This document shows positions 31,457 to 61,692 of a stretch of 64,000 nt of DNA, piece after piece; the stretch's first letter is position 1, and each line of letters starts with the position of its first letter. Both the position numbers and the translations under genes were made by a program. Source of the DNA: Patescibacteria group bacterium (GTDB taxonomy: Bacteria; Patescibacteriota; Patescibacteriia; Buchananbacterales; UBA6539); contig JAQTYZ010000003.1 in the NCBI GenBank assembly GCA_028688055.1, forward strand, positions 66,752-130,751, written 5' to 3'. The notes beneath the pieces are model-generated. The model was not told the DNA's origin and searched no databases. It worked only from the letters and a program-made list of their open reading frames with translations.

Positions 31457-31486
31457 AAAATTAGTTTAAGATTAGGAGAGTTAAGC

Positions 31487-31540
31487 TCCGAGGTAGCTCA
31501 ACGGTAGAGTCCCGCCACGGCGGGATTAATCCATTGGTCC
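31487..31540 (+). pseudogene. Degenerate 5' fragment of tRNA-Asn (acceptor and D-arm intact, anticodon stem replaced by a GC mini-hairpin)
   Basis: TCCGAGGTAGCTCAACGGTAGAG is identical to the intact tRNA-Asn at 31807; it is followed by TCCCGCCACGGCGGGA and TTAATCCATTGGTCC. Confidence 0.5.
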
Positions 31541-31548
31541 TTGATTAT

Positions 31549-31794
31549 ATGAACTATTTCGTTTATATTATTAAGAATCAACAAGGCGCAATTTATATCG
31601 GTCAGACAAAGAATATTTTTGTCAGACTGAAGGTTCACAATTCGAACGAGGTTTTTTCAACGAAAAATCAAGGTCCCTGGAAACTTATTTATTTTGAAGA
31701 GTTCACATCTCGATCAGACGCCATGGCACGAGAAAAGCAGTTAAAAAGTTTTAAGGGTGGTAATGCTCTAAAAAAATTAATTGATAAAGTTTAA
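31549..31794 (+). CDS. Small GIY-YIG nuclease family protein (YhbQ/UPF0213-like); ATG 31549 preferred over the TTG at 31534
   Basis: YFVYIIKN...AIYIGQT (GIY/YIG), conserved Arg and EKQLK helix; 81 aa. Confidence 0.75.
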   Translation: MNYFVYIIKNQQGAIYIGQTKNIFVRLKVHNSNEVFSTKNQGPWKLIYFEEFTSRSDAMAREKQLKSFKGGNALKKLIDKV

Positions 31795-31806
31795 GGAGAG
31801 TTAAGC

Positions 31807-31878
31807 TCCGAGGTAGCTCAACGGTAGAGCAGTGGACTGTTAATCCATTGGTTCCGGGTTCGAATCCCGGCCTCGGAG
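31807..31878 (+). tRNA. tRNA-Asn (anticodon GTT), intronless
   Basis: U1:A72 and G73 as in bacterial tRNA-Asn; D-loop AACGGTA, anticodon loop CUGUUAA, T-loop TTCGAAT; 72 nt. Confidence 0.8.
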
Positions 31879-32103
31879 GAGGCTGGACGCGTTCCCGGAG
31901 ACCGGTTTGAGGCAGTCAACTTAGCCAAAAATAGTAGTCGTCAGTTTGTGTCCAATCCTAGGTGAGAAATCAGTTTAGAACCAGATAGCAAATTAGAGTC
32001 CAGTGATTAGGTAATACATAAGTGTTCTCGGCGACTGGCTCCGCCGATCAAAGGCTTGAAAATTTAAAACTGAATATTTATACTTCAAAAAAGAGTCATG
32101 TGC

Positions 32104-32396
32104 TCCGAGGTAGCTCAATGGTAGAGCAGCGGACTGTAGAATGATGCAGCCCCTAGGAGAAATCCTAAGGTGAAAATTTCGGGATAACGGTGAAGGCTAC
32201 GTTCGTCAGTTGACGGATATGCGAACACCGTGGGAACTCTGATCCGCCAGATGGCAGATCGGGGAGCGCCGTAGAGACTAGATACCGAAACACCTACATC
32301 CAAAATTGGATACGGTGATGATATAGTCCATCCCCCAACGAAAGTTGAGGACAAGATGTAATCCGTTGGTTCCGGGTCCGAGTCCCGGCCTCGGAG
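32104..32396 (+). tRNA. tRNA-Asn (GTT) interrupted by a 221-nt group I intron (32138-32358) in the anticodon loop
   Basis: Exons rebuild the same scaffold as the 31807 gene with anticodon loop CUGU|UAA; intron follows a U, ends with G, and carries R-like AGAGACTAGA and S-like GATATAGTCC (P7 pairing) plus a GAAA-capped P9. Confidence 0.7.
32138..32358 (+). other. Group I self-splicing intron (no ORF)
   Basis: P1 CUGU/GCAG with U.G at the 5' splice site, conserved R/S elements, omega-G at 32358. Confidence 0.7.
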
Positions 32397-32460
32397 CAGA
32401 TGACTTTTTGAAAAGAATTTTGAATAAAATAAGGCCAATCAGGTAGGTATACCGACGGCT

Positions 32461-33750
32461 TTATTTTACTAGAGAGACCTTTTGGTTTTTAAGATAGAGT
32501 TCAGTTTTTAAACAAGCCAATATCTCCCGCTTCTCATCGCGAGTTCCTTCGGCTAGTAAGTATTTAACGTATTCCTTGATGTCCACTTCGGACATTTTTA
32601 TTTCATCTCGGTTATTACCCTTGGAAATTAGCGTATTAAATTTTTGGTAACGCTCCATTTCCTGCTGCATTTTTTTCAGCGTACCCAACTTATCCAGTTC
32701 AATCTGATCAATTATTTTGAGCAACTCCTCGATTAATGTTTCTTCTCTGACGTACGCTTCTTTGCAATTGTAATCTTTGAATCGGTTACAGTGGTAGTAG
32801 ACGTAGCGTTTTATTGAACCATCATGTTTGATCTTTTTGAATTTATCTTCGGCTGTGACCCCTGATCCGCATGAACCACACTTAATCATGTTGGCGAAGT
32901 CAAATTCTTTGGTACCAGGTTTTAATTTCGGTGCTACCTCGAGATGTATCTTGACTTCGTTAAATAGATCTTTACTGATTAATGCCTGATGCGAACCTTT
33001 GTAGAATATTCCTGAACCCACCGGATACTCAAACTCGCCGTAATAGAAATGATTTTTGAGCATATTGTAAATACTACTCAATGCTATTTTCTTTCCGCTC
33101 CTCGTCCTAAATCCGATTTCATTCATCCATCGCTTGAGTGCCCGACCACTGTATCCTTGGTAGGCAACCTTTTCAAACATTTGAGTGATTACCGGCGCTC
33201 GCTTTGGATCAAGATATACTTTCCGCTGACCCTTCGTTTCGCCAATTCCGTGGAGGTAACCAATCGGAGGATAGCCTGGTCGCCAGCCCTGTTCACATTT
33301 GGCGCGAAGCCCTCGTTTAACATTCACTCCCTTGGCATCGTTTTCTAGTTTGGCAGTACTACCTAGGATCATCAACAAGAATTTTTCGTTCGGTGAATTA
33401 CCAAAGGTTTGTCCGTAGGTTTTTATCTGCTTCAAGATTCCCTGATCCATAAAATCAATGAGCTTGCCAAGGTCACCGGCGTTTCTGCTCAACCTATCAG
33501 GTGCCCAAGTTAAAATGGCGTTGTATTTTTCAGTTCGCAATGCCTCAACCATTTTATTAAATACCGGTCGTTTACCCGAATCTTTAGCTGAATGAGACTC
33601 CTCAAATGTCTCAAGGATTTCAATATTTTCTCGTTTGGCCACTACCGCCATTTCTTTATTCTGTGTTGGGATAGAAAGCTGTTGGAGTTCGTCAGACTCC
33701 GTGCTTTTCCGGCTATAGAGGCAATACCTCAAATTTTGTTCTAAGTCCAT
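32461..33750 (-). CDS. Large serine recombinase (resolvase-domain integrase)
   Basis: YSRKSTESDELQ catalytic Ser motif, DRLSRN, recombinase domain, zinc ribbon CGSCGS...YYHC, coiled-coil tail; adjacent to tRNA genes. Confidence 0.85.
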   Translation of the reverse strand: MDLEQNLRYCLYSRKSTESDELQQLSIPTQNKEMAVVAKRENIEILETFEESHSAKDSGKRPVFNKMVEALRTEKYNAILTWAPDRLSRNAGDLGKLIDFMDQGILKQIKTYGQTFGNSPNEKFLLMILGSTAKLENDAKGVNVKRGLRAKCEQGWRPGYPPIGYLHGIGETKGQRKVYLDPKRAPVITQMFEKVAYQGYSGRALKRWMNEIGFRTRSGKKIALSSIYNMLKNHFYYGEFEYPVGSGIFYKGSHQALISKDLFNEVKIHLEVAPKLKPGTKEFDFANMIKCGSCGSGVTAEDKFKKIKHDGSIKRYVYYHCNRFKDYNCKEAYVREETLIEELLKIIDQIELDKLGTLKKMQQEMERYQKFNTLISKGNNRDEIKMSEVDIKEYVKYLLAEGTRDEKREILACLKTELYLKNQKVSLVK

Positions 33751-34035
33751 ATTATTGATGGTTATTACTTATCAACTACATGGATGACGCACCGGTGGCT
33801 GGGTGTCCAGTTCCCATTGTAGGTAAACTGTAGGTAACTTAAAATCGATATTTTGGCTTTACTTTGGTTAATTTTTTTGGTATTTTATATGTAGTGAATC
33901 TGATTAATACTTGTTGAATAATTAGGCGCAACATAACTTATTTGCCTATAGGTTTTGCGCTGTTAATGAATAGATCAGTAAAAGCCCTTCTTATGATTAC
34001 GATTTTGAAGTTAAAATCGGAAAACAAAAAATAAT

Positions 34036-34950
34036 GTGGCATTATTTAAAATAATCGGCTCAACCGTAAAAAAAATCACCGCAAAAGAGCTTGACTTGGA
34101 GAAAAACCTGCAGACGCTTTTTGAAAATAATCTGGAGGAGTTATTGAACATTTTTTTTCTATCTCATGAGCATTCAACTGGCTTCGGTGGTAGAATTGAC
34201 ACACTCGGCATAGACAAGGATGGTGCGCCCTGCATTATTGAATACAAAAAAAATCAGAACAACAATGTTATCAATCAGGGACTTGCTTACCTTTATTGGC
34301 TGTTAGATCACAAAGCCGATTTTGAGAAAATTTGTCGGAATAATAAAATTGGTATCGAAATCGATTGGGATTCTCCCCGAGTTATTTGCGTAGCTGAAAG
34401 ATACAACAATTTTGATCTGGATACGGTCAACGTTTTGCCGATTAATGTTGAGCTTTGGCGCTACCGTATTTACGACGAAAATATTCTCTTTTTAGAGCCG
34501 GAGAATTTCCAGAAAGTTCGAATATCTACGGCCAGTATTATGCGGAAGACGAAGTATGATAGGGAAAAGCAGGAAATTATCCAAAAAAATTATTCGGTGG
34601 GAGAGCATCTTGCAAAAGCAGGTGAAGACATTAAATCGCTGTTTTTGAAGTTGCGCGAGAAAATAATCTCACTCGACACCGAGATTAAAGAAGATCCACA
34701 AAAAAACTACGTGGCTTATAAGTTATCAACGAATTTTGCGGACGTGGAAATCTACCGCAATCAACTTAAAATTTTCCTGAATGTAAAAAGCGGCCAGCTT
34801 AATAATCCTGATTCCATTGCCCGTGATATGGAAAATCCAAGGCACATCGGTCACCACGGCAATGGCGACTATGAATTAAAGCTGGAAAGCGATGAAGATA
34901 TGGATAAGGTGTTTTCACTTATCAAGCAAAGCTACGATCTGAATAAATAA
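34036..34950 (+). CDS. PD-(D/E)xK nuclease-superfamily protein (NucS/DUF91-like core), candidate restriction endonuclease (GTG start)
   Basis: GRIDTLGIDKDGAPCIIEYKK (D...ExK); directly upstream of an EcoRI-family MTase. Confidence 0.45.
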   Translation: MALFKIIGSTVKKITAKELDLEKNLQTLFENNLEELLNIFFLSHEHSTGFGGRIDTLGIDKDGAPCIIEYKKNQNNNVINQGLAYLYWLLDHKADFEKICRNNKIGIEIDWDSPRVICVAERYNNFDLDTVNVLPINVELWRYRIYDENILFLEPENFQKVRISTASIMRKTKYDREKQEIIQKNYSVGEHLAKAGEDIKSLFLKLREKIISLDTEIKEDPQKNYVAYKLSTNFADVEIYRNQLKIFLNVKSGQLNNPDSIARDMENPRHIGHHGNGDYELKLESDEDMDKVFSLIKQSYDLNK

Positions 34951-34954
34951 TATT

Positions 34955-36025
34955 ATGAGTACTCGATCACTAAATAGAAGTCTTCATAAGGCAAGCCAGG
35001 CAAAAAATGATGAGTTTTATACTCAGCTTGGCGATATTGCTAATGAGCTCCGGCATTACCGAGACCAGCTTAGCGGCAAGGTGATTCTTTGTAATTGCGA
35101 TGATCCATTTGAGAGCAACTTTTTCAAATATTTTGCAGCTAATTTCAACACGCTTGGGCTCAAGAAGCTCATCGCCACTAGTTATCAGAAGTCGCCGATT
35201 GTCGGCGGACAACTATCGCTTCTTGATATTGAAGGGCTCAAGCCGGAAGGGAGAGAACCGTATGTGGTGGAGATCAACGAAGTGCCGGATATGAATAGCG
35301 ACGGAGCGATAAGTTTGGATGATGTAGAGCATCTGCTTAAGCACAATAAAAATATCGCGATGCCGCTTAAAGGTGGCGGTGATTTTCGAAGTAAAGAATG
35401 TATTGAGCTTCTTAAAAAAGCCGATATTGTCGTCACCAATCCACCGTTCTCGCTCTTTCGGGAATATGTCGCACAGTTAATTGAGCATAACAAAAAATTT
35501 CTTATAATCGGCAGCAAAAACGCTATCACATACAAGGAAATTTTTAAGCTCATAAAAGAAAACAAATTGTGGCTTGGATATGGCTTTGCGGCCGGAAACG
35601 CATTTTTCAAAATTCCGGCAGAGAAAGCGCGCGAATTTGCGGCTGGTGTATATGATTCAAAAACTGGCCTTGTAAAGTTTCGTAATGTTGGATGGTTCAC
35701 CAACCTTTATGTTGATAAATCCGAAGATCCGATCACGCCCTATCTCACCTATGAGCAGGGACGCAAGAAAGGGCTTTATCCGAAATATGACAACTATGAC
35801 GCTATTGAAGTTTCGAAAGTCGCAGAAATTCCAAGTGATTACAAAGGCGTTATGGGCGTGCCTATAACGTTCTTAGACAAATGGGCACCCGAAAGCGGCA
35901 TAGAGATAGTCAAATTCAGAAAAGGCGATGATGATAAAGACCTAGCGTTTACGAGAGAGAGAGAGAGAGTACAACCGTACTTCAGAATACTCATTCGCTA
36001 TCGTCGGGCAAACAGGAGTCATTGA
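34955..36025 (+). CDS. EcoRI-family N6-adenine DNA methyltransferase
   Basis: N-terminal LHKA..NDEFYTQ and ILCNCDDPFESNFFKYFAANF are characteristic of the M.EcoRI family (from memory of the family); NPPF motif IV; (GA)8 tract 57 nt before the stop. Confidence 0.65.
   Translation: MSTRSLNRSLHKASQAKNDEFYTQLGDIANELRHYRDQLSGKVILCNCDDPFESNFFKYFAANFNTLGLKKLIATSYQKSPIVGGQLSLLDIEGLKPEGREPYVVEINEVPDMNSDGAISLDDVEHLLKHNKNIAMPLKGGGDFRSKECIELLKKADIVVTNPPFSLFREYVAQLIEHNKKFLIIGSKNAITYKEIFKLIKENKLWLGYGFAAGNAFFKIPAEKAREFAAGVYDSKTGLVKFRNVGWFTNLYVDKSEDPITPYLTYEQGRKKGLYPKYDNYDAIEVSKVAEIPSDYKGVMGVPITFLDKWAPESGIEIVKFRKGDDDKDLAFTRERERVQPYFRILIRYRRANRSH
35953..35969 (+). repeat. (GA)8 microsatellite inside the MTase 3' coding region
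   Basis: CGAGAGAGAGAGAGAGAGTAC; a +/-2 nt change switches to an alternative, longer C-terminus. Confidence 0.9.
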
Positions 36026-36229
36026 GCCAGATGGAATCTGTATTGAGTACAAGGCGGGCAGGCCGTACATTAAGGGACAAAGGAAGTATGCGAGATTATT
36101 TATTAAGCAAAAACAAATTTGAAATCCTTGGCATCGCAAACTCTGCGCGATGGATAGGATACAAATTATATACGATTATAGATGGCCGAAAAATTTACAA
36201 TAGGATTATAATTAGACGAAGATAATAAT

Positions 36230-37327
36230 ATGAATATAGAACTCAAAAATATCAAAATACGCGACGTAGTGAAGGGCTACAAAGACAGTGGCGAGAGCGG
36301 CGTGGTTGGTTACGGCGGCAAACTAAACATTCGTCCGGCGTTTCAGCGCGAGTTTATTTACGGCCAGAAAGAGCGCGACGCTGTTATAAGGACAGTACGG
36401 TCTAGCTTCCCGCTCAACACAATGTATTGGTCGGTGGACAGAGACGGCGGCTTTGAACTCATGGATGGACAACAGCGCACCATTTCTATTTGCCAATATG
36501 TCACCGAGATTATCCCAATAAAGTTTGATGACGGCTACGAACTGGCATTTAACAATTTGACCACCGATCAGCAAGAGAAGATTTTGAATTATGACCTCTC
36601 CGTCTATATCTGCGAAGGAACGGAAAGCGAAAAACTTGCATGGTTTCGGACGATCAATATCGCAGGCAAGCCATTAACCGATCAGGAACTCTTAAACGCC
36701 ATGCACACTGGGCCGTGGCTTGCCGATGCCAAACGCTGGTTTAGCAAGACAGGCGGACCGGCGTATCAGATTGGCGAAAATTATGTAAACGGCTCGCCGA
36801 TTCGCCAAGATTATCTGGAAAAGGCGCTTGACTGGATTTCGGATGGAAAGATTGAGAATTATATGAGCCGCCACCAGCAAGACAAAGACGCGCAGGAATT
36901 GTGGCAGTATTTTCAAGAAGTCGTAGCATGGGTTGAGCGCGTATTCCCCGAGTATCGAAAAATTATGAAGGGCTTAGAATGGGGGCGATTTTACAATGAG
37001 CACAAGGGCGATAAATTAAATGCGGCAAGCTTGGAAAAACGAATTGCGGGATTGATTGAAGATGACGAAGTAGATAATAAGAAAGGTATTTATGAATATC
37101 TTTTGACCGGAAACGAGAAGACGCTCAATCTGCGCGCCTTTGATGAAAAGACGAAAGTTAAACAGTACGAGAAACAGAAAGGAATTTGCCCGACATGTAA
37201 GAAACATTTTGAAATTGATGAAATGGAAGCTGATCACATTGTTCCATGGAATCAAGGTGGAAAAACAATGGAGAAAAATTGCCAGATGCTGTGCAAACAG
37301 GACAATAGGACTAAGTCTGGGAAATAA
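36230..37327 (+). CDS. DUF262 (ParB-like NTPase) - HNH nuclease fusion, GmrSD-like type IV restriction candidate
   Basis: RPAFQREFIY and DGQQRTISI (DUF262 signatures); C-terminal HNH DHIVPWNQGG...C..C..DN. Confidence 0.7.
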   Translation: MNIELKNIKIRDVVKGYKDSGESGVVGYGGKLNIRPAFQREFIYGQKERDAVIRTVRSSFPLNTMYWSVDRDGGFELMDGQQRTISICQYVTEIIPIKFDDGYELAFNNLTTDQQEKILNYDLSVYICEGTESEKLAWFRTINIAGKPLTDQELLNAMHTGPWLADAKRWFSKTGGPAYQIGENYVNGSPIRQDYLEKALDWISDGKIENYMSRHQQDKDAQELWQYFQEVVAWVERVFPEYRKIMKGLEWGRFYNEHKGDKLNAASLEKRIAGLIEDDEVDNKKGIYEYLLTGNEKTLNLRAFDEKTKVKQYEKQKGICPTCKKHFEIDEMEADHIVPWNQGGKTMEKNCQMLCKQDNRTKSGK

Positions 37328-37330
37328 AAA

Positions 37331-38698
37331 ATGAGTATGAACATGGAAAATTCAAAATGGAAAAAGAAAGATATCGCTATTAAAGACCTTTTGCTGTGGG
37401 ATGAAAACGCGCGTTTTTCTGATCAGTATTTTGACCTCTCGGAAGAAGACCTGTTGAAACATTTCTTAATAAGTAAATTTCAGCTACTTAAACTTGCTGG
37501 CGAGATGGAAAAAGATGCCGACCTTCCTCAGTTGGAAAAAATTGTTGTCTGGCGTTCCAATGATCGTAATATAATTCTTGAGGGCAATAGACGAATCGCC
37601 GCATATAAATTACTGGCAAATCCGAAATTGGCCGGTGTTCAAGAAAGTAAATTTTCAAAAATTGGGTCAAAGGTTGGGATTTCCGAAGACTTCGAAGTTG
37701 AATGTCTTGTCACTGAAGATTTGGAACAAGGTTACCGATTTATCGAGAGAAAGCACCTTAATCAAAACAACGAAGTTTCTTGGGGTTCAAATGAGATCGC
37801 CCATCATAAAGATCGCCGAGGAAAGGCCGGTGAAAAAGAACTAATAAGAGTCGGTATTACGAAAGTTGTTAATGACCTCGAAATGGCAAACGAGTTAAAG
37901 GAAGCCGTCTTGGGACCGGGATATGTAACTACTTTTTGGAGACTGACCGGACAAACACCCGCCCAGCAGTATTTTGGCTTCTCTTTCGGTGATGATAAAA
38001 AGTTGAAAATAAAAGATGGTGACTTCGATAAAAAACTGAAAGTTATTGTCTGGGATGTACTCAAAAACGGCCAGTATAAGGGAAAGTTGTTTTCTCGTTT
38101 AAATAATGCGGAAATATCGGATTATTTGAAAAATATTTCTGATAAAGATTACAATCGAGCATCGCAAGAGATAGAAGAGGCAGAAAACAATAAACAGAGT
38201 GATCTTTTCGGGAAAGCGAGCGTTGCTACGAACTACAATTTTAGGATACGAAAAACTCCGGTTACTAAAACTGGAAACGACCTTTTCGGCAGGACTTTAG
38301 CTTTACAGTCCGGCCATGTAAATGATTTATATCGCGCCCTTGCAGATATTGATAAAAAAAATCAAGGTAACGATGCGGTTTTGCCGTTTTTGGGTATGGC
38401 CCTGCGTCTTTTAGTAGAAGTTGCCGCTCGCGTGCATTATGACAATAATGGCGACAAAGAAAAAGCTAAAAAGGATCAAATTTGCGAGATATTTTTGAAA
38501 GAAGCGAAGAAGAAACTAAATCAGCATCGAAAAAATGATATTTCCCTTACTAATGATTGGCTTTCAGATAAAAGAAATCTTAGTGCTATTTTGGACAAGT
38601 ATGCTCATGGCCAAATTGTTTGTAAACGTGCCGATGTATTAAAAGATTCATACATTGTCGCTGATATTTTAGATTTCTACTTCGAAAAGAAGTCTTAA
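37331..38698 (+). CDS. ParB-like nuclease-domain protein, function unknown
   Basis: LLLWDENARF and ILEGNRRIAAYKLL resemble the ParB/Srx N-terminal domain. Confidence 0.45.
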   Translation: MSMNMENSKWKKKDIAIKDLLLWDENARFSDQYFDLSEEDLLKHFLISKFQLLKLAGEMEKDADLPQLEKIVVWRSNDRNIILEGNRRIAAYKLLANPKLAGVQESKFSKIGSKVGISEDFEVECLVTEDLEQGYRFIERKHLNQNNEVSWGSNEIAHHKDRRGKAGEKELIRVGITKVVNDLEMANELKEAVLGPGYVTTFWRLTGQTPAQQYFGFSFGDDKKLKIKDGDFDKKLKVIVWDVLKNGQYKGKLFSRLNNAEISDYLKNISDKDYNRASQEIEEAENNKQSDLFGKASVATNYNFRIRKTPVTKTGNDLFGRTLALQSGHVNDLYRALADIDKKNQGNDAVLPFLGMALRLLVEVAARVHYDNNGDKEKAKKDQICEIFLKEAKKKLNQHRKNDISLTNDWLSDKRNLSAILDKYAHGQIVCKRADVLKDSYIVADILDFYFEKKS

Positions 38699-38703
38699 TT
38701 TAT

Positions 38704-39552
38704 ATGCAAAAGATACCACGAAAAAGAAACCAAAAATTACACTGTAGCCCGTTAAGATATCCCGGAGGGAAGACTTTTTTATTTCCTTTCTTTGATAATG
38801 TCATAAAGGATAACGGATTGGAAAAGGTTACCTATGTCGAACCGTTCGCCGGTGGTGCCGGTGCGGCACTGGTTTTGCTACTATCCGGGAAAGTTGATCG
38901 CATTGTGATTAATGACTTGGATAAAGCTATCTATGCTTTTTGGAAATCGTCTATATTTAATCCCGACAAATTTATAAAAAAGATAAAATCAACCCCGGTA
39001 ACCATTAATGAATGGAAAAAGCAAAAGGCGATTTATAATAACCCGAAGGCTAGTCTCTTTGATCTCGGTTTTGCCACTTTTTTTCTCAATAGAACTAATA
39101 CGTCCGGCATTTTGGACGGCGGACCTATTGGAGGATTAAGACAAAAAGGTAAATACAAAATCGATGCCAGATTTAACAAGGACACTTTGATAGAACGAAT
39201 ACAGCGGATAGCCACACATAAAAAGAAAATATCAGTTTTTAATAAGGACGGACTTAGGTTGATTGGTGAGTATTTAAATAAAAAGAATACATTTATATAT
39301 CTTGACCCACCTTATTTTGAAAAAGGCGCAACACTTTATCTAAACCACTATAAAAAAGAAAATCACGAGGCTCTGGCTAAAAAGCTAAACGATAACCCTG
39401 ATGCCTTTTGGCTGTTAACGTATGATAACAAAAAAGAAATTAAGTCACTTTATTCGAACAGACATATCATCAACTTTTCGCTGAATTACAATGCCTACAA
39501 ATCCCGCAATGGTAGAGAAGTTATGATTATGTCAGATGCGCTCATAAGGTAA
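38704..39552 (+). CDS. Dam-family (D12 class) N6-adenine DNA methyltransferase
   Basis: LRYPGGKTFL SAM-binding N-terminus, DPPY catalytic motif (YLDPPYF). Confidence 0.8.
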   Translation: MQKIPRKRNQKLHCSPLRYPGGKTFLFPFFDNVIKDNGLEKVTYVEPFAGGAGAALVLLLSGKVDRIVINDLDKAIYAFWKSSIFNPDKFIKKIKSTPVTINEWKKQKAIYNNPKASLFDLGFATFFLNRTNTSGILDGGPIGGLRQKGKYKIDARFNKDTLIERIQRIATHKKKISVFNKDGLRLIGEYLNKKNTFIYLDPPYFEKGATLYLNHYKKENHEALAKKLNDNPDAFWLLTYDNKKEIKSLYSNRHIINFSLNYNAYKSRNGREVMIMSDALIR

Positions 39553-39603
39553 AGCAGGTAGACAAACTGTAGATAACCTAAAAGCTCAAAATATGCTAGA
39601 ATA

Positions 39604-39632
39604 TTGACAATATTACGATATTGTGGTATTGT
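39604..39632 (+). promoter_or_regulatory. Sigma-70-like promoter for the DGR target gene
   Basis: TTGACA, 17-nt spacer, TGgTATTGT extended -10. Confidence 0.45.
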
Positions 39633-39719
39633 AATATATCCGATTACCAACGTGGTAAAAGGTCCCCAGCCTCGGGGAGAGGCAGATACCAACTGGCCAT
39701 CGGCTAGGAGGATAGGAAA

Positions 39720-40685
39720 ATGATGTGTACTTTGACGGGAGTTTCCGACCTTGACGAGTTGTCTCATGCCCATTGGAAGGCGTTAGCCAACAAATGCGGC
39801 GGTCTGGAAAATGTTATTGCCGTCCTGCAAGGAGAGCAAGAGATTACCCTCCGGGAAATCATCAAGCTCCTCATTGACCGGAACGGTCGTGGCATCCCCG
39901 ACAAGTCGGTGGTGAAGTCGAATGTGTGCGACGCAAACCGCGCATACTACTTTGACCGCCTGCCGGACGATTACGACTTTGCCGCCATGCTGTCATTGTG
40001 GCAGGAGCGCTTCAAGCAGAATCCGGGCATGGATGCCAAGGAATTCCGCGAGCGTATCGCTGGCATCCGGGGAATGATTGCGGCTAACCGCCAGATCAGA
40101 AATCTGGACACACCAAACGCCGCGCCGTGGTTCCCGCTTATCCTGCCGCAGATTCCGTTGCAAAAGCCCGAAGGCGACGAAGCAGTCGAGGCCAAACAAA
40201 TGGACTACGGCACATTGCTCGAAGACACCTTGTTGCCCGCCGTCGAGGCGAGTTACATTGCGGCCTACCCCCAGCGGCAGTTTATCAACTACCGCAAGGG
40301 TGAGCTGTCAGGACAGGTGACGATCGTCGAGGAACGTCACGCCAAGCTCTACCAAGACTTGGCCAACGGTCCGATTATCGGGATTTTGTTCCCGACAGCG
40401 TTGCACGGCTTCAGCCCGTTTGCCCAGCGCGAGATGATCACCCTTATGCCAGAGCACTGCTCACTTGAGGGACCGATGGACATGGGTGTCGCCGAAACGC
40501 TGTACACACGGCAACTGTCGCGTGACAACAACACGCCCGTGAAAGACTGCTCTGCAGTCCAATGGCGGGACCCCGAGTACTCGCTGTACTTCAACGCCGA
40601 CGACGACGAGCTCGGGTTCGACTACGGGGACGACCTCGGCCTTGCGTACGGCGGCTCTGCGGGTGGGGTGTTCTTCCGCGGGTAG
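39720..40685 (+). CDS. DGR target (variable) protein; the C-terminal 40 codons form the variable repeat
   Basis: GC-rich ORF whose 3' 120 nt (40563-40682) is an A-mismatch-only copy of the TR at 41050; RBS GGAGGA. Confidence 0.75.
   Translation: MMCTLTGVSDLDELSHAHWKALANKCGGLENVIAVLQGEQEITLREIIKLLIDRNGRGIPDKSVVKSNVCDANRAYYFDRLPDDYDFAAMLSLWQERFKQNPGMDAKEFRERIAGIRGMIAANRQIRNLDTPNAAPWFPLILPQIPLQKPEGDEAVEAKQMDYGTLLEDTLLPAVEASYIAAYPQRQFINYRKGELSGQVTIVEERHAKLYQDLANGPIIGILFPTALHGFSPFAQREMITLMPEHCSLEGPMDMGVAETLYTRQLSRDNNTPVKDCSAVQWRDPEYSLYFNADDDELGFDYGDDLGLAYGGSAGGVFFRG
40563..40682 (+). repeat. DGR variable repeat (VR)
   Basis: 120 nt aligned to TR with 16 substitutions, every one at a TR adenine. 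Confidence 0.85.
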
Positions 40686-40756
40686 TGAATTGGTCTTTGA
40701 CCTTTGGTACCTTGATACTTTTGGTGCCTTGGTCAGATCACGCTACTTATTTAATC

Positions 40757-40799
40757 GAGAGGGTTCAAAGCTTCGGCTGCGAACCCTCTCTTCTTTTTG
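40757..40799 (+). terminator. Rho-independent terminator after the DGR target gene
   Basis: GAGAGGGTTC..(UUCG mini-loop)..GAACCCTCTC plus T-run. Confidence 0.6.
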
Positions 40800-41049
40800 T
40801 AAAATTTGGTATAGTACAATATGAAAGTAGGCAGTGCGTCTTGGTTTACGGATCAAGGCCGTCGAAATCCTTTGTTTCTGCAAAGTGCCAGAATTTGATA
40901 GCTCATGGGTTATCAGAGCGTGCATCCTAAGAAATAAAGACACTACGTGTTTTTCTCTAGTGCCTAGTATGGGCCAAATAAAATTCAGAAGATGGCTCAC
41001 GAGTGAGACAGAGTCGCTTCGGTGCTTTGGATGGAGAACAACACTTTTC

Positions 41050-41169
41050 TGGCAGGACCCCGAGTACTCGCTGTACTTCAACGCCAACGACGACAAGCTC
41101 AAGTTCGACAACAGGAACAACCTCGGCAATGCGAACGACAACTATGCGGGTGGGGTGTTCTTCCGCGGG
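41050..41169 (+). repeat. DGR template repeat (TR), rich in AAC codons
   Basis: TR-only adenines at all 16 VR/TR differences (AAC to GAC/TAC/GGC etc.); shared GC-rich 3' end GCGGGTGGGGTGTTCTTCCGCGGG (IMH-like). Confidence 0.85.
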
Positions 41170-41187
41170 CAGTGTCTTTACTTCAAG

Positions 41188-41210
41188 GAGACCTCCGTAT
41201 CGGAGGTCTC
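41188..41210. other. Perfect 10-bp hairpin GAGACCTCCG-TAT-CGGAGGTCTC directly 3' of TR
   Basis: Seen in sequence; may act as a DGR RNA structural element or as the avd terminator. Confidence 0.6.
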
Positions 41211-41215
41211 TTATG

Positions 41216-51044: not shown

Positions 51045-52051
51045 CGACGCAAGAATTTTTTGATGGCCTGCTTGACCATGTCGATTTGAAGGTCAGCGAT
51101 AAGGAGCGACGACTGATCGAAACTAAACAGAATGAGCTGCGCGAAAAGTTGCGCGAATTCCTGGATTTAGAGGATGATTTCCTTACGGGGTCATACCGTC
51201 GCAATACAATCATTAAGCCGAGGAATCCATCGGAAAAATTTGATGTCGATGTGTTTGTTGCTTTCAACAAGGAAGATTACGAGAATAAGGACTTAGCTGA
51301 GCTTCGGCAAACGGTAATTGACGCTTTGCATAATATAAATAGTCAGTACCCAGAGCTGGGGATCTCGCGAATTAATGAAAGCCAGCGTCGTTCCGTTAGA
51401 GTTGAATTTGGGAATAATTTTCAAATTGATGTCGTTCCGGCGATTCAAATTGAAAAAGATGTTCACTACAAGATTTTTGACAAGAGGACACTCTCGGCAG
51501 TTAAGTCGAATCCAAAACTGCACGGTGAATTACTGACCAAGGCTAACGAGCATGCGAAAGGTAAATTAGTCCCTTTAATAAAAATGTTACGGGCGTGGAA
51601 GCGTCAAGAGTGCCCATACGTTAAATCATTTCATATTGAGTTACTGGCGGTTGAGATTTTAGGATCGTCAAATTTCGATTCCTATTCCGAAGGGGCTGAT
51701 ATATTTTTTGATAAGGCAAGGGAGTATGCGAAGAGTGCTTGCCTTAAGGATCCGGCAAACGCCGATGTCACTATTGATGACTACCTCGATGATGACGGCA
51801 AGAGGCAAGACTTTATTAACCTAATTAACACAGAATTTCAATTGTCAGAAGAAGCAAGGAAATTAGAATCGGTCGGGGACGAAGATGGTGCAGTCGCTAA
51901 GTGGCAAGAAATTTTCTATGACGAAGATGAAAAAACTGCGGCGGCGATTAGGTCTGGTAACTTTTACGTGGGTGCTGGTGGAGTGGTAGTAGGCAATAAT
52001 GATGAGCAAAAGTATGGGAGAATTGAATCGCCCCGTTCCTACCGAGTCTAA
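51041..52051 (+). CDS. cGAS/DncV-like nucleotidyltransferase (CD-NTase, SMODS domain)
   Basis: GSYRRNTIIKPRNPSEKFDVDV (GS...DxD) and third Asp in QIDVVPA; helical domain LIKMLRAWK. Confidence 0.65.
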   Translation: MTTQEFFDGLLDHVDLKVSDKERRLIETKQNELREKLREFLDLEDDFLTGSYRRNTIIKPRNPSEKFDVDVFVAFNKEDYENKDLAELRQTVIDALHNINSQYPELGISRINESQRRSVRVEFGNNFQIDVVPAIQIEKDVHYKIFDKRTLSAVKSNPKLHGELLTKANEHAKGKLVPLIKMLRAWKRQECPYVKSFHIELLAVEILGSSNFDSYSEGADIFFDKAREYAKSACLKDPANADVTIDDYLDDDGKRQDFINLINTEFQLSEEARKLESVGDEDGAVAKWQEIFYDEDEKTAAAIRSGNFYVGAGGVVVGNNDEQKYGRIESPRSYRV

Positions 52052-52841
52052 CCCGCAATGGTACGATACATTACCAGATCGCCTTGAGGAAGAAATTCGG
52101 TTAATGAAAGAATTTCATCCTTCATTTGATCTTAGCCATTCTGCCGGGGAAAGTATTTTTTGGACAGGATATGCGAAAGCATTGCGAAGCGATGGTTCAG
52201 TAATTACAGTATTGAAAATTAAAATAGAATGTCCAGCAGCATATCCTTTTTTATTTCCCCTGGTTTATGATTCTGAGAACATTTTGTTTAACCGCGGTTG
52301 CCCGCACCTAAGTAATAGCAGCGGCGGTTTTTTCACTCTTTGTTACGGGAATAGGCTCGATCCCCAGTTGGATTTTCAAGGGTCTACACGTGTTAAGGAC
52401 GTAGTAAACTACGTATGCATTTTTCTTGCCCGCCAATGGCATTTTGAAAGGTATGGTTTTTGGCCTGACGGTCAACCTCACGGTGAATTAGCCTTTTTAT
52501 ATCATGAGATTAAGCAAGACGTTTTGAATCCTGATGATTTATGCCCCTGTGGCCTAACTGAAAAAACATACAGACATTGTCATATGCCCGCTGTTTTAAA
52601 CGTTCTCAACCAATGGGACCTATCCCTAAAAGGAGAAATCAGGAAACGTGTTGATCAGGTTAGTGGTAGAAATGACCCATGCCCTTGTGGGAGCGACAAA
52701 AAATTTAAAAAATGTTGTTCGCCAAAACTAAATTATTCAAGTAAGTTTTTTTTATTCATGAAATTTCCAGAATTTTTTGACTTTGATTTGTTCAGGCGTG
52801 ATAATATATTAAATGCTTTGTGTGGCATGAAAACTGAATGA
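51999..52841 (+). CDS. E2 (UBC)-like protein with two C-terminal SEC-C zinc motifs; Cap2-like partner of the CD-NTase
   Basis: YPFLFPLVY...GCPHL...GGFFTLCYGN resembles the E2 YPFKPP/HPN/Cys core; CPCG...C.H and CPCGSDKKFKKCC. Confidence 0.4.
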   Translation: MMSKSMGELNRPVPTESNPQWYDTLPDRLEEEIRLMKEFHPSFDLSHSAGESIFWTGYAKALRSDGSVITVLKIKIECPAAYPFLFPLVYDSENILFNRGCPHLSNSSGGFFTLCYGNRLDPQLDFQGSTRVKDVVNYVCIFLARQWHFERYGFWPDGQPHGELAFLYHEIKQDVLNPDDLCPCGLTEKTYRHCHMPAVLNVLNQWDLSLKGEIRKRVDQVSGRNDPCPCGSDKKFKKCCSPKLNYSSKFFLFMKFPEFFDFDLFRRDNILNALCGMKTE

Positions 52842-52886
52842 GACAGTCAAAAGTAGCCTTAAGGACTGTCTCATTTGTCTCATTTT
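52840..52886 (+). terminator. Terminator after the CD-NTase/E2 operon
   Basis: GAGACAGTC...GACTGTCTC plus T-rich tail. Confidence 0.5.
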
Positions 52887-53046
52887 CCCAAAAAGGCTAC
52901 AATTATCGAGTTAAATCACCTGACCGGTTCCCGTCCAGATTCGTAGCTGAAAGACCGCTGAAACCCTTGGTAACGGTGGTTCCAGACCGCGATGGGGAGC
53001 TTAGCTCTCCTTTTTTGTTTTCTAAAATATTTTCAATGGTATAATC

Positions 53047-53055
53047 CTATATTCT
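53047..53055 (+). promoter_or_regulatory. Extended -10 promoter TGGTATAAT upstream of pheS
   Basis: Same TGnTATAAT element as the pilin promoters. Confidence 0.45.
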
Positions 53056-53210
53056 CGAAGATGGTTTGAAAGGTGGTGTATGCTGTATTGTCAATTCCCT
53101 GTCCTTTAAAGAGGAGGTTCGCTTCCAAATACGCTAGGATAGCTCTCCTAACGTTTATAGCTTTCAACTTTGTTAATTCTAAGATGGTTAGGTAGCAGCT
53201 TTACTTAAGT

Positions 53211-54266: not shown

Positions 54267-54638
54267 CCGATCTAAATTCAATAGAATATAAAAAAATGAC
54301 TACCACCGAGAGAATCAACGGTAGTCGTTTGTGTTTATAATTGATCCCAGCCGTAAAGGGAGAGTCTGGGCTTATTTTTTATTAATTACTCGTTCAAATT
54401 GCCGATCCTTTCTATTTTTGGTAGGATTAAACTGAAAAACCAGCAATTTTTCCTACATCCAAACGTTAAATAAAATAAATTTTAGGTGGTCAACCGAAAA
54501 CAAGATCAACATTTAGCTTAATAATATTAAGGTGGTAGACTAAGATATTATTAAAATTTTATCCTGTTTCGCTCCGCAAAATTTCATCTAGCATCAAGAT
54601 TGCCTGAAACTAAAAATATTCTTTAACTAAATAAAACT

Positions 54639-54965
54639 ATGCCATTTCTAAATCAAAAACCAATGTTAAGTGATTTTCAACAGTATGTCCGCGAACTTGA
54701 GGAAGAACGCGGGTTTACTAGTCAAACAGTTTTACAAAGGTGTCTAATGCTCGGCGAAGAAATGGGTGAGCTATTTCAGGCGATTCGTAAAGAAGAGAAT
54801 ATAGTAATTGACCATAACTCCAAGTTTGGCTCAATTGAAGAAGAACTTGCGGACATTTTTATTTTTTTGTGTTCAATTGCCAATAGATATAATATCGATT
54901 TAGAACAGGCCTTTCGAACCAAAGAGGAAGTGAATAAAAAAAGAGTTTGGAGCAAAGTAGCGTAG
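54639..54965 (+). CDS. MazG-like nucleotide pyrophosphohydrolase
   Basis: LGEEMGELFQAIRKEE and ELADIFIF EExxE motifs. Confidence 0.7.
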   Translation: MPFLNQKPMLSDFQQYVRELEEERGFTSQTVLQRCLMLGEEMGELFQAIRKEENIVIDHNSKFGSIEEELADIFIFLCSIANRYNIDLEQAFRTKEEVNKKRVWSKVA

Positions 54966-54992
54966 AAAGTTTTAATCAATAATATTTAAAAT

Positions 54993-55340
54993 ATGAGCGA
55001 AACACTTGAGGAGGAACCAATTGAAACATTAACCAATACGAATAATTTTTATACTTATCTGCCCGGGGGTTGGCTAAGAGACTTGGGGGGCGCAAATCCG
55101 GAACAGCAGCGGTTAATGGCGGCGATTGATCAATTGCTGCAAGATGAATTCTCCGATATCAATGGTGCGGAAATTGCTAAGACTATGGCTGAGGCAAATC
55201 AATCAATCGCTCAAGCTTTTAACGACAAGGGGTCACCGGACCAAGCGAGAGCACAATTTAAAGCGGCGGAAGAAAAACTGCGCCCATTATTTAATCGACT
55301 TTTGGAGCTGGGCTTTGACGCTGATTTGATGCGGGGATAA
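54993..55340 (+). CDS. Hypothetical acidic protein
   Basis: ORF only. Confidence 0.3.
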   Translation: MSETLEEEPIETLTNTNNFYTYLPGGWLRDLGGANPEQQRLMAAIDQLLQDEFSDINGAEIAKTMAEANQSIAQAFNDKGSPDQARAQFKAAEEKLRPLFNRLLELGFDADLMRG

Positions 55341-55392
55341 ATTTGGCCGATCGCGCTGCACTATTAAGTTTAAAAATTTTTTAAGTAATAAC

Positions 55393-55839
55393 ATGGCTAA
55401 AAATATTTCAGTTATTCCTAATTGTTTTTATCGTGTCAGCGTCAAGGCTTTGATTCTTGATGACCAAAAAAGATTTTTACTTACCTGGGAAGACAAGGGC
55501 TTTTGGGAACTGCCCGGCGGCGGTTTAGATTTTGGCGAAAAATCGTTTGAATGTCTGGCTCGGGAAATAAAAGAAGAAATGGGGCTGGAGGTAACTCAGG
55601 TTAACGACCGGCCGTCGTATTTTTTAACCGTTTTGCACCGCGGTGGCCAGTATTCGATTTGTAACATTTTGTATGAAGTAAAAGTCAACAACTTGAATTT
55701 TCGGCCGTCAGCGGAGTGCGTTGAGCTGCGGTTTTTTACCAAGGCTGAAGCGGCCAAAGAAAATCTTTCGATTAATGTTGTTGAGTTTGTAAAATTGTAT
55801 AATCCCGACAATCATCAGCCGGGGGAAAATAGTGTTTAG
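55393..55839 (+). CDS. NUDIX hydrolase
   Basis: GGGLDFGEKSFECLAREIKEEMGLE. Confidence 0.8.
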   Translation: MAKNISVIPNCFYRVSVKALILDDQKRFLLTWEDKGFWELPGGGLDFGEKSFECLAREIKEEMGLEVTQVNDRPSYFLTVLHRGGQYSICNILYEVKVNNLNFRPSAECVELRFFTKAEAAKENLSINVVEFVKLYNPDNHQPGENSV

Positions 55840-55910
55840 GGCAGTGATGGATTTGATGCTCCAAAAAATGGGTGATAGTAAATTTAAAAATATTTATTTT
55901 AAAACAGATG

Positions 55911-56540
55911 GCTGATTGGGACAAAATTTATGTTGATTACCAGCAAGGTGGAGAAGCTTGGGCAACCTTAAGCGAAGGGATCCATCCTTTATTTAAACAA
56001 TTTTTGAACCAATCAAATTTTAAACATCAACAGGTTTTAGATATCGGATGTGGGACTGGCAAATATGCAAGCTGGTTGATTAACCAAGGCTTCCAAGTTG
56101 ATGGTATTGATTCTAGTCCAACCGCTGTTCAAATGACCAAAGACTTGCTGGGCGGTCAAGCCGGAATGATCAAAGAGGCAAATATGTTTAAATTCAGCAT
56201 TGCCAAAAATAAATATGATTTAATAATTTCGGTGGCAACTATTCAGCACGGTATTAAAAAAGACATTCAAAATTTGATTAACAAAATTCACTCGGCCTTA
56301 GTGGCTGGCGGAAAAACGTTTATTACTATGCCAGATTTGGAGAGTTCGAAAAAATGGAAGACATTTAAGAGTCATCAGGATTTGGGCGATAGTACTTTCG
56401 CCCCTTTAGCTGGTCCAGAGCAAGGTTTACCTCATAGTTTCTTTACTAAAGTCGAAGTTCAAAAATTGTTTGCCAAATTTAGCAAGGTCAAAATCAATTT
56501 GGATGATCGGGGGCGCTGGGTTGTTCAAGCTGCTAAATGA
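55911..56540 (+). CDS. Class I SAM-dependent methyltransferase (start at MADWDK)
   Basis: VLDIGCGTGKYASWL motif I. Confidence 0.7.
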   Translation, partial: ADWDKIYVDYQQGGEAWATLSEGIHPLFKQFLNQSNFKHQQVLDIGCGTGKYASWLINQGFQVDGIDSSPTAVQMTKDLLGGQAGMIKEANMFKFSIAKNKYDLIISVATIQHGIKKDIQNLINKIHSALVAGGKTFITMPDLESSKKWKTFKSHQDLGDSTFAPLAGPEQGLPHSFFTKVEVQKLFAKFSKVKINLDDRGRWVVQAAK

Positions 56541-56558
56541 AATAGATAAATTTTTTCT

Positions 56559-56948
56559 ATGAAACTGATTCAAAAAGCCATCATTAAAATGGGCGATAAA
56601 TATTTGATCGGGCTGAGGTCGCCCAACGCTAAATATTTTCCCCAACACTGGGATTTGCCCGGCGGCAAACTGGAGCCAAACGAAGATCCATTTTTAGGAA
56701 TCAAACGAGAAGTAAAAGAAGAAACGGATTTAGAGGTCAAACCGCTTAAGGTTTTGGGCGTTTATGAATTTGATTTGGATGGGCAAGGGGAGAATACTCA
56801 TCGTTTTACCATCTATGCCGTTGAAATTATTTCCGGTACGGTTAAATTAAGTTCGGAACACACTGAGCAAAGCTGGGCCACCAAAGATGAAATCCTCAAA
56901 TTGAAGATTGAACCATACTTTGTGCCTTTTTTTGAAGAACATCCGTAA
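56559..56948 (+). CDS. NUDIX hydrolase
   Basis: PGGKLEPNEDPFLGIKREVKEETDLE. Confidence 0.8.
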   Translation: MKLIQKAIIKMGDKYLIGLRSPNAKYFPQHWDLPGGKLEPNEDPFLGIKREVKEETDLEVKPLKVLGVYEFDLDGQGENTHRFTIYAVEIISGTVKLSSEHTEQSWATKDEILKLKIEPYFVPFFEEHP

Positions 56949-57198
56949 AAATTTATTTGAGCAATAACTTATGGCGTTAGCTGGATTTAATAGTGCCAGT
57001 AAGTATAGTATGCGACGTTGAGAAAGAGTAAAATTTTGTTTTAAGAATAAAAAACCCCATCACATGGACAGTAATAAAATATTTCATCAACTTTAAAGTC
57101 GGTGGTCTAGGCCTCCTTTTTTGTTTCCCCATAGCGCTTGATAATATTCAAAAAATGTAGTATATTTTATTTTCAGGCCAATTATTATTTTTTTAAAA

Positions 57199-58656: not shown

Positions 58657-58696
58657 TTTACGACAGTTGAGTTTTTTATTTTAAAAATAGTTGATT

Positions 58697-58726
58697 CCCG
58701 CCACCGCGGGATTTTTTATTAGCTAA
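58697..58726 (+). terminator. Rho-independent terminator
   Basis: GATTCCCGCCACCGCGGGATTTTTT. Confidence 0.6.
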
Positions 58727-58990
58727 CAGTATCACGTATGAAGGAGGGATGGCGAAGCACCATGGCCTTCTACTGTACCTGTCATCCTGAATTAATTTCA
58801 GGATCTCTGAGATGCTGAACCCACTGCCACGGCGGGGCAAGTAAGTTTGGCATGACCCTAACGAGCGTGTCGCGAAGCACAGGAAACCTCGGCATTAATT
58901 GACATGAGTTTTTGGTTTCGTTAGGATGGTTTTAGTGTTTCGTCGTGCCTGGTTTGGGTCAAGCGTTGTTTGGCAACAGAGGAGGGCTTA

Positions 58991-59436
58991 TGCCTACAAG
59001 TCGAACGTTAAGTATAGCTTTTTTGTTTGCCCGTGGGTCACGGGATCAGATCCTGGAAAAAGCTAATGATTACGCTCGGATGATTCCGTCAAGCGAAGCC
59101 AAGTTTAAGCGACTGCCAACATCAAGCGTTAGTCAGGTCGTCGCCACCTTATCCCGTTCGCTCGAAGATGGCGGCGGTAGGGGTATTCCTAATGCCGGTG
59201 ATGTTTGGGTGGCGTGCGTCCAGTATCCGACCGAGTGTTTATTGCCGCCATTGACCGGTGCCGTGACTGTTCAGTTTCATGAAGAAACCGTCACTAACGG
59301 CAGCTTTGAACAGTTGGCGGAGAAAGTCAATCAATTTACCAAAGAGCATCGCGCCACTTACTTTGAGGTGACGTGGGATGATCGCAGTCCCAACTCTTGG
59401 TCGGTGATAATTACGTACCTTGTAGCGTACAACTAG
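58991..59436 (+). CDS. Hypothetical protein in a locally GC-rich segment (start at RBS-supported ATG)
   Basis: GGAGGG RBS 4 nt before the ATG; no recognisable motif. Confidence 0.3.
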
Positions 59437-59566
59437 ACGGTGCGTTTGGACTGACCGTTCATTGTTTCCAGAGCCATCAATCCGTCTAAGGTAATTGGTG
59501 GTTTTTTTTATAAAAATGATTTGGTAAATCGCCAACCAGACGATTTTTTGTTACAATATCAAAACT

Positions 59567-60082: not shown

Positions 60083-60151
60083 AATTTATTAAGATAAAAA
60101 ACAATCCCGCTGAGGTGGGGTTGTTTTTTGAAATATATTTAGGGTGATAAG

Positions 60152-61201: not shown

Positions 61202-61317
61202 ATGTTTATTTTTGAGAGTTTAAAGTTACTCTATTATAGCACGAATTAGTTTTAAGATGAAAAGAATGATAATTTTTGGTATACTAAATCAAGTCCTAAA
61301 AATTAAACTTAGACGAT

Positions 61318-61530: not shown

Positions 61531-61692
61531 TTATCATGAACCGAAAAAAAATAATTGTACGGCTGCGAGTGGTTAAGCGTTTTTTCAATCAAGGGGAATA
61601 ATAGTGCCTAATATTTTTTTAACCTTGCCAAAGAGGCATTTTTTTGTTATAGTTAAATGAAGTGATAATTTATTAGAAATTATCAACCTATT

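Follow-up and report, generated by a model that had tools for sequence, protein, structure and literature searches.

A cargo-rich island beside tRNA-Asn in a Patescibacteria genome represents a widespread family of candidate satellite-like mobile elements

The DNA analysed here, a 64,000-nucleotide stretch of a Patescibacteria (candidate phyla radiation, CPR) genome (contig JAQTYZ010000003.1; hereafter the window), holds an island of ∼20.6 kb (∼32.41–53.1 kb) placed between a tRNA-Asn cluster 3′ of rpoD and pheS, whose listed genes span 32461–52841 (Table 1). An original prediction, made from the letters alone, had proposed a phage-derived integrated island of ∼20 kb beside tRNA-Asn, with rpoD on its left and pheS on its right, and profile searches recover every gene that it listed. 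The island genes are indeed not vertically conserved, and their core is found at varied tRNA genes, but "phage-derived" is too loose a term for what proves to be a conserved element family and not a random prophage remnant. We consider it rather probable that the island is one integrated, cargo-rich copy of a widespread CPR mobile-element family that is satellite-like and would work via the capsids of a helper phage. The fixed parts of this family are a terminal non-coding block, a repressor gene, a divergent operon encoding a ParB-methyltransferase fusion (ParB-MTase), a methyltransferase (MTase), TerS, and TerL, the LOOT RNA, and a tRNA-targeting large serine recombinase (LSR). Two slots for variable cargo lie behind the repressor gene and between the TerL and LSR genes. 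Judging by sequence, slot 1 of the window is occupied by a cyclic oligonucleotide-based antiphage signaling system (CBASS), and slot 2 by a PDC-S11-like set plus two blocks delimited by a 19-bp site.

Conserved core of the element family

An IMG/VR search with the LSR first gave contigs on which the genes for ParB-MTase, in some cases MTase, TerS, TerL, and LSR are collinear, with TerL and LSR adjoining. A scan of IMG/VR with the single TerL protein gave no match; relatives surfaced only with an alignment, which led to at least 323 relatives, of which 80 metagenomic loci were fetched, plus further IMG/VR loci (cited here by L numbers). In a full HMMER scan, the TerL family comprises 480 cluster representatives (50% identity) at E ≤ 1e-30. 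Its members are 37–83% identical to one another, at most 31% identical to other IMG/VR TerLs, and 26–28% identical to those of the closest isolated phages, which are Mu-like, and the family alignment shows no variation at the Walker A/B motifs or the nuclease acidic residues. The order ParB-MTase-(MTase)-TerS-TerL is collinear in ∼85 of the fetched loci. In 49 loci, an LSR gene follows on the same strand 3′ of TerL, its product being 44–58% identical to the window LSR, which carries the catalytic-serine motif YSRKSTE. Clustering of 1042 open reading frames (ORFs) from 88 loci gave MTase (77 loci), TerL (86), TerS (77), LSR (55), and LexA-like (16) as the only widespread clusters. Recurring accessory genes fall into clusters of type I restriction-modification (R-M) subunits, an Eco57I/MmeI-type MTase, an SNF2-PLD helicase, large MTases, CD-NTases, ImmA/Xre regulators, DUF4352, an OB-fold protein, and several unknowns. 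Neither the island, nor the families listed for the rest of the window, nor these recurrent accessory clusters include a capsid, portal, or tail family. Of the genes that mark an intact tailed prophage, terminase and integrase are present, and capsid, portal, and tail were not found. A "prophage" call by a PHASTER-type scan, which had been suggested as a check, would mislead here because such structural genes are found neither in the island nor in its relatives.

Synteny speaks for insertion. Vertical conservation of these genes in relatives would have pointed the other way, and island genes were found in none of the 36 closest CPR rpoD loci (0/36), nor does pheS lie within 10 kb downstream of rpoD in any of them (0/36). 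An LSR gene stands at the same tRNA spot in only two of the 36 (L006 and L020), and these LSRs are unrelated to that of the window. Other copies of the family are convergent to tRNA-Glu, -Ser, -Gln, -Asn, and -Asp genes, the tRNA often lying 0.2–1.1 kb from the LSR 3′ end, an arrangement that the window shares. Such placement of the core module at different tRNA genes in other genomes is as expected of a mobile island. Many family loci sit on contigs of 100–330 kb, so many copies are chromosomal, and complete-looking copies can be as small as ∼5–6 kb (L125, L114).

The repressor gene belongs with this core. Its LexA-like product carries the autocleavage motifs (an Ala-Gly site, a serine in GPSM, and a lysine in VKRL), and in 15 relatives the gene likewise lies divergent from ParB-MTase at the corresponding place, the copy in L088 being 81% identical. 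In view of these motifs and of the recurrent divergent placement by the core, the protein is probably the self-cleaving master switch of the element; the gene had been foreseen as a CI/LexA-like repressor, although as cargo. An ImmA(M78)/Xre pair stands in its place in the first of two tandem elements on one 25.6-kb contig (L086, 1–18114, and L082; IMGVR_UViG_3300014205_009253), which carries MTase-rich cargo between the two. Upstream of the window ParB-MTase, an inverted repeat (49559–49676; 26-nt arms, 85% complementary, 66 nt apart) lies between the repressor gene and a zinc-ribbon ORF, possibly as an operator or structured RNA. The zinc-ribbon ORF was considered as a conserved recombination directionality factor and rejected, as it has a single homologue (L094).

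Two non-coding elements accompany the core. LOOT was found in all six relatives tested (6/6), and a covariance model built from seven copies (R1) has 34 matches in 1.19 Mb of family loci versus 2 in 1.16 Mb of controls, the latter being the window itself and L006, which also has an LSR island. The RNA nearly always lies opposite the TerL strand, typically 140–230 bp upstream of and divergent from the LSR gene. LOOT, an orphan in Rfam, is a component of the element family and so gains a genomic home; the literature that we searched held no paper on its genomic context.

The terminal block consists of a hairpin with 13-bp arms, tandem GTCTCATTT repeats, a distal hairpin (loop GGTTCCAGACC, covarying stem), and a terminator. 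With up to three substitutions allowed, its 19-nt core occurs in 15 family loci versus 0/80 rpoD loci, always opposite the TerL strand and 0.5–7 kb upstream of ParB-MTase. The window and L088 share the block beyond differing CBASS cargo, and an Rfam search assigned it to no family. A 68-aa ORF over the block, called in a Logan assembly, was rejected as coding, since L088 does not keep the frame and the core does not vary at the nucleotide level. Because the terminal block marks the far end of the element, the right junction is placed at 53017–53210, in agreement with the border anticipated at 52850–53200.

Within this plan, several relatives depart in detail. In one variant (L128, L143, L148, L024), the LSR gene is divergent and upstream of ParB-MTase, not downstream of TerL, and in L084, L128, and L143, LOOT lies directly 3′ of the LSR gene; these placements suggest inversion or module shuffling. 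Three loci carry two tandem full-length TerL genes whose products are ∼50% identical to the window TerL (L081, 1620–4813; L169, 3167–6216; L176, 3812–6764), and six TerL representatives (P0001, P0002, P0004, P0008, P0009, P0011) reach ∼690–760 aa with a ∼200–250-aa extension that is mostly C-terminal. The closest relative, L088 (TerL 83% versus LSR 52% identical to the window), has a further reverse transcriptase gene ∼4 kb past its LSR gene, near two tRNA-Arg genes (18996–19907), and, beyond its terminal block, an rve-type transposase and a Fic protein.

Table 1. Features of the island and its junctions in the window, in order of position
Feature	Coordinates	Strand	Remarks
tRNA-Asn(GTT) interrupted in the anticodon loop by a 221-nt group I-like intron (32138–32358)	32103–32396	+	host DNA, left flank
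Left (LSR-proximal) junction interval	32410–32460		acceptor-stem complement and L006 similarity end at 32409; LSR stop 32461–32463
LSR	32461–33750	−	Resolvase + Recombinase + Zn_ribbon_recom (PF00239, PF07508, PF13408); phrog_95 integrase 1e-60
Conserved LSR-upstream block ATGACGC-N14-GTCCAG plus 19-mer copy 1	33780–33837	+	block upstream of LSR in 18 loci
19-mer copy 1, GTAGGTAAACTGTAGGTAA	33819–33837	+	68 bp upstream of LSR gene
Cargo block 1	33838–39557	+	between 19-mer copies 1 and 2
DUF5655 / PADLOC PDC-S18	34036–34950	+	6e-96; PD-(D/E)xK gene paired with EcoRI-family MTase
EcoRI-family MTase	34955–36025	+	4e-126
DUF262 (GmrSD_N)-HNH	36230–37327	+	PADLOC REase_II 7e-134
PD-Lambda-5_A	37331–38698	+	2e-27
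PD-Lambda-5_B (D12/Dam MTase)	38704–39552	+	1e-113
19-mer copy 2, GTAGACAAACTGTAGATAA	39558–39576	+	6 bp past PD-Lambda-5_B stop
Cargo block 2 (diversity-generating retroelement)	39577–42665	+	between 19-mer copies 2 and 3
Retroelement target gene	39720–40685	+	variable repeat 40563–40687
Template repeat	41050–41174		125-nt template/variable repeat pair, 86% identical
bAvd	41216–41590	−	1e-19
Reverse transcriptase (RVT_1)	41564–42669	+	frames 41564–42226 / 42244–42669
19-mer copy 3	42666–42684	+	at reverse transcriptase stop, 86 bp before LOOT
LOOT RNA (Rfam RF03000)	42771–42888	+	strand opposite TerL; 80 bits versus gathering threshold 46.4, model positions 1–121
Cargo between LOOT and TerL	42948–45236	+	membrane protein, PDC-S11-like, HTH
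Membrane protein	42948–43508	+	LOOT–TerL cargo
PDC-S11-like nuclease-family protein	43520–44608	+	weak link to PDC-S18
Helix-turn-helix (HTH) protein	44640–45236	+	sub-threshold HTH matches only
TerL	45349–46845	−	phrog_38 7e-77
TerS	46823–47269	−	phrog_4044 2e-9
PF01555 MTase	47288–48067	−	core operon
ParB_N-MTase (PF01555 + ParB_N)	48027–49334	−	core operon
Zinc-ribbon ORF (CxxC...CxxxC, 61 aa)	49343–49528	−	just upstream of ParB-MTase
S24 LexA/CI-type repressor	49862–50515	+	Peptidase_S24 + LexA_DNA_bind; divergent from core operon
CBASS operon	50520–52841	+	behind LexA-like gene
CBASS TM effector	50520–51044	+	6e-21
CD-NTase	51041–52051	+	SMODS 8e-20, PADLOC Cyclase 3e-55
E2 + SEC-C	51999–52841	+	E2 8e-15
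Terminal non-coding block, ∼190 nt	52826–53016	+	directly 3′ of CBASS E2 stop; right end of element
Right junction interval, before pheS	53017–53210		family-conserved block stops at terminator near 53016

Cargo in the two slots

At the place of the window CBASS, L088, L109, and L162 hold a different one, with a SLATT effector and a CD-NTase 23–30% identical, and we read CBASS as exchangeable cargo behind the repressor. The second slot varies in length: among the 49 loci, the TerL–LSR gap is ≤216 bp in 25, 0.9–2.5 kb in 13, and 4–7 kb in 10, and that of the window, filled with defence cargo and a diversity-generating retroelement (DGR), is the largest at 11.6 kb. In relatives, this slot holds a DGR (L085, L093, L103, L149, L163) or a gene of the family of the PDC-S11-like protein at 43520 (L088, L108, L150); that family recurs beside LOOT or the core in L082, L088, L108, and L150. 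Since both components match and lie 5 bp apart, PD-Lambda-5_A and PD-Lambda-5_B form one two-gene system, and the first of them is the "ParB-like protein" of the original prediction, for which PD-Lambda-5_A is the only identification obtained. Likewise, the triple-HTH protein that had been called excisionase-like is encoded where expected, and its matches do not establish it as an excisionase.

The 19-mer GTAGRYAAACTGTAGRTAA occurs three times in the window versus 0.01 expected. In the relatives with the most similar LSRs (L088, L089, L109, L125, L162), a single 19-mer lies between LSR and LOOT; the LSR-side flank of copy 1 matches relatives, and the LOOT-side flank of copy 3 matches the single site of L088. 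Because the three copies bracket two cargo blocks and the outer flanks match single-site relatives, the simplest reading is that both blocks were inserted at the 19-mer. A search of IMG/VR for the 19-mer gave five unrelated matches without family genes.

The DGR in the second of these blocks is genuine, as had been proposed, because 16 of the 17 differences between its template and variable repeats fall at template adenines and bAvd is present. A frameshift that splits its reverse transcriptase (RT) had escaped the earlier list. The frame is broken within a 45-nt insertion holding (GA)12 (42127–42150), where one GA fewer restores it, and an independent Logan assembly (SRR22315507) is identical at this point. 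The EcoRI-family MTase gene holds a (GA)8 tract (35953–35968), in frame and close to its 3′ end, which is again identical in the Logan assembly, and the two tracts have similar flanks, CGA(GA)nGTAC. Both tracts may be slipped-strand switches of phase variation.

Proposed mode of life and its alternatives

From this anatomy, we infer the following cycle. The repressor would keep the core silent and co-express the defence cargo until DNA damage or phage infection brings about its self-cleavage. Cleavage would induce the MTases, the terminase, and excision of the element by the recombinase; the MTases would pre-methylate the element DNA, which TerS and TerL would package into helper-phage capsids in the manner of a phage-inducible chromosomal island (PICI), and the host would be repaid with anti-phage systems.

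PICIs, including the Staphylococcus aureus pathogenicity islands, are likewise small elements integrated at a conserved site, with an integrase, a divergent master repressor, and their own TerS, without capsid, tail, or lysis genes, and with anti-phage systems in defined hotspots. They differ in using a tyrosine integrase where the present family has an LSR, and here a full TerL stands beside TerS, two MTases and the LOOT RNA belong to the core, and the host is a CPR bacterium; dependence on a helper is predicted only. The primase/replicase-origin module by which PICIs replicate was not found. Capsid-forming PICIs are satellites that encode both TerS and TerL, as here, but they also have capsid, portal, protease, and head–tail connector genes, none of which was found in the island or its relatives. 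The placement of defence genes behind a maintenance repressor recalls cI-rexAB of lambda, although the two arrangements differ in the class of repressor fold and in the defence system, and co-transcription of the LexA-like and CBASS genes is suggested here by their 4-bp spacing only.

The 19-bp site invites two further comparisons. Accretion in SCCmec (CcrAB) and in integrative and conjugative or cis-mobilizable elements likewise sets an LSR beside cargo blocks split by short direct copies of a site. In SCCmec, that site is a chromosomal junction, whereas the repeated site here is internal to the element, 68 bp ahead of the LSR gene, with no ccrAB pair or orfX target and with multiple copies at one locus only. 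Integrons also pair a recombinase gene with an adjoining site that gathers cassettes oriented away from it; this likeness is architectural only, since integrons use the tyrosine recombinase IntI and folded attC sites, whereas the window has a serine recombinase, a 19-bp repeat without an attC-like hairpin, and "cassettes" that are multi-gene blocks of 3–6 kb.

Several observations weigh against the satellite-like reading and keep our confidence in it moderate. No helper phage is known. Profile searches found no replication family among the island genes or the recurrent accessory clusters, with some small ORFs left unannotated, nor was any recombination directionality factor recognised. Contexts of relatives covered ±10 kb and many accessory proteins matched no family; a divergent structural gene may thus have gone unnoticed. 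Neither an excised circle nor an att (attachment) sequence has been demonstrated, and the searchable collections, in which the organism appears in a single sample, hold no empty-site strain. CPR origin is established for the window, L024, L114, and L150 only, not for all loci. The other long-gap loci show no convincing repeat of LSR-proximal sites, multiple copies being confined to the window, and the DGR cargo may be inactive owing to the RT frameshift. A more specific proposal is accordingly put forward only tentatively: the family may be an undescribed class of CPR satellites with their own TerS, TerL, and protective MTases but no capsid, with LOOT as an integral part and with defence and DGR cassettes captured at the 19-bp site by the LSR in an integron-like way.

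Three other explanations were weighed. The first, which we judge unlikely, is a non-transmissible defence island, whose terminase/MTase core would be a defence or counter-defence module, with the terminase, for instance, cutting or mis-packaging phage DNA while the MTases shield the cell's own, and whose LSR would serve only for gain, loss, or inversion of cassettes. The constant company of defence cargo, the missing capsid and replication genes, the 19-mer-bracketed cassettes adjoining the LSR gene, and the inversion of that gene relative to the core in L128, L143, L148, and L024 would all suit such an island. However, many tRNA loci together with a patchy distribution argue for mobility of the whole element, tandem copies occur on one contig (L082/L086), and TerS plus TerL with intact ATPase and nuclease motifs are most simply a packaging machine.

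Still less probable is a decayed prophage, a once-complete temperate phage now without structural, replication, and lysis genes, whose remaining integrase, terminase, and MTase genes are decaying beside a defence hotspot. TerS, TerL, and ParB-MTase are typical phage genes, Streptococcus prophages have a ParB-MTase just before the packaging genes, several relatives are filed as viral in IMG/VR, and the broken RT would fit decay. Yet the same 4–5 intact genes stand in the same order in hundreds of loci (40–60% identity, catalytic residues invariant), both associated non-coding elements are preserved, and a partly decayed structural module was seen in no locus. The least likely reading of all is that of a mosaic, in which an LSR element, part of a phage, and an island with CBASS are independent and by chance share one tRNA hotspot, for although tRNA-adjoining hotspots gather unrelated islands, unrelated LSRs (28% identity) stand at the same tRNA-Asn in L006 and L020, and the unequal LSR and TerL identities to L088 suggest module exchange, the LexA-like gene, core, LOOT, and LSR are collinear in dozens of loci at different chromosomal sites, and the terminal block is shared past the differing CBASS cargo of the window and L088.

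To our knowledge, the mobile elements and the phage-defence economy of CPR bacteria are poorly known. Large serine recombinases, for their part, are valued as genome-engineering tools. CPR bacteria account for much of bacterial diversity, and most of them have no CRISPR-Cas (Burstein et al. 2016, PMC4742961). The locus suggests that R-M-like systems, CBASS, PD-Lambda-5, and DGRs travel among the tiny CPR genomes in a common vehicle, and it offers a compact serine-recombinase system with a candidate cassette-capture site that is open to testing. If the satellite-like reading is true, phage satellites would be indicated for the first time in CPR bacteria, as would satellites that have a whole terminase but no capsid; if capture at the 19-bp site is true, the LSR would run an integron-like acquisition platform. 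The literature that we searched held no description of the element family in CPR bacteria, although prior mention is possible, as a key paper on CPR DGRs lies outside that coverage.

Junctions and host flanks

For a serine recombinase, a lack of direct att repeats is expected. The two junction intervals share no significant repeat, direct or inverted, and the earlier failure to find a clean attL/attR pair by eye is thereby borne out. The best inverted match, 32408–32434 versus 53009–53036, scores 28 and was rejected as not significant (shuffles 18.9 ± 2.7, maximum 32). No att sequence could be derived from the regions downstream of the LSR gene in 48 loci, which show no conserved sequence (their LSRs are ∼50% identical), and neither terminal direct repeats nor circular contigs were found. 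The comparison with related genomes that had been advised for defining att sites was of no use, the relatives being too distant (rpoD ∼70%) and pheS never lying near rpoD. GC content and skew, also advised as a check, were equally uninformative: the island (GC 0.38–0.45) is like its flanks and only the DGR repeat region is GC-rich. Exact-protein look-ups of rpoD and pheS (two candidate starts) returned no record, those of TerL, LSR, and MazG returned only the Logan assembly of SRR22315507, 100% identical to the window, and a megablast of the island against GenBank phages gave no match.

The left flank carries dnaG and rpoD, the latter 70–75% identical to rpoD of Uhrbacteria, Falkowbacteria, Kerfeldbacteria, and Parcubacteria metagenome-assembled genomes, which places the host among CPR bacteria. 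On the right, the start of pheS is at 53211 or 53235. Between rpoD and the island lies the tRNA-Asn cluster, which ends in a split gene. Its halves are 81–90% identical to the intact tRNA-Asn at 31806–31879, and its insert scores 45.7 bits (E 3e-10) against Rfam Intron_gpI, below the gathering threshold of 50. The insert is preceded by U and ends in G, and its removal, as predicted for splicing, gives a tRNA-Asn(GTT) that ARAGORN calls; the intron-bearing gene itself was missed by ARAGORN and by Rfam at the gathering threshold. Homologues occur in host contexts in CPR genomes (L024, twice; L019, L023, L021, L007), and in L006 and L020 they adjoin the unrelated LSR genes mentioned above. The split tRNA-Asn thus belongs to the host and is a spot where integration recurs; its 3′ end faces the LSR 3′ end, and it marks the left flank and probably the target region, outside the element.

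Upstream of it, the order 3′ of rpoD is a degenerate tRNA-Asn stub (31486–31509, within 31474–31879), a GC hairpin, an 86-aa GIY-YIG ORF (31534–31794), and the intact tRNA-Asn. The stub matches the full gene at 100% identity over the 5′ part and 12 nt upstream of it, and the layout resembles that of a homing-endonuclease-type cassette within a duplicated tRNA. L006, L143, and L101 also have GIY-YIG ORFs beside tRNAs or the ends of elements. The ∼220-nt spacer between the two tRNA-Asn genes (31880–32102) has neither an ORF nor an Rfam match.

Among the matches listed for the rest of the window (25 of 47 families) are type IV pilus proteins, a GatA-type amidase, an NAD-dependent ligase, and several NUDIX proteins. 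Within the host flanks (1–27000 and 54600–63700), the pilus cluster consists of two T2SSE ATPases, T2SSF, a prepilin peptidase, and four N_methyl pilins, and the 64-kb window holds five separate NUDIX-domain genes.

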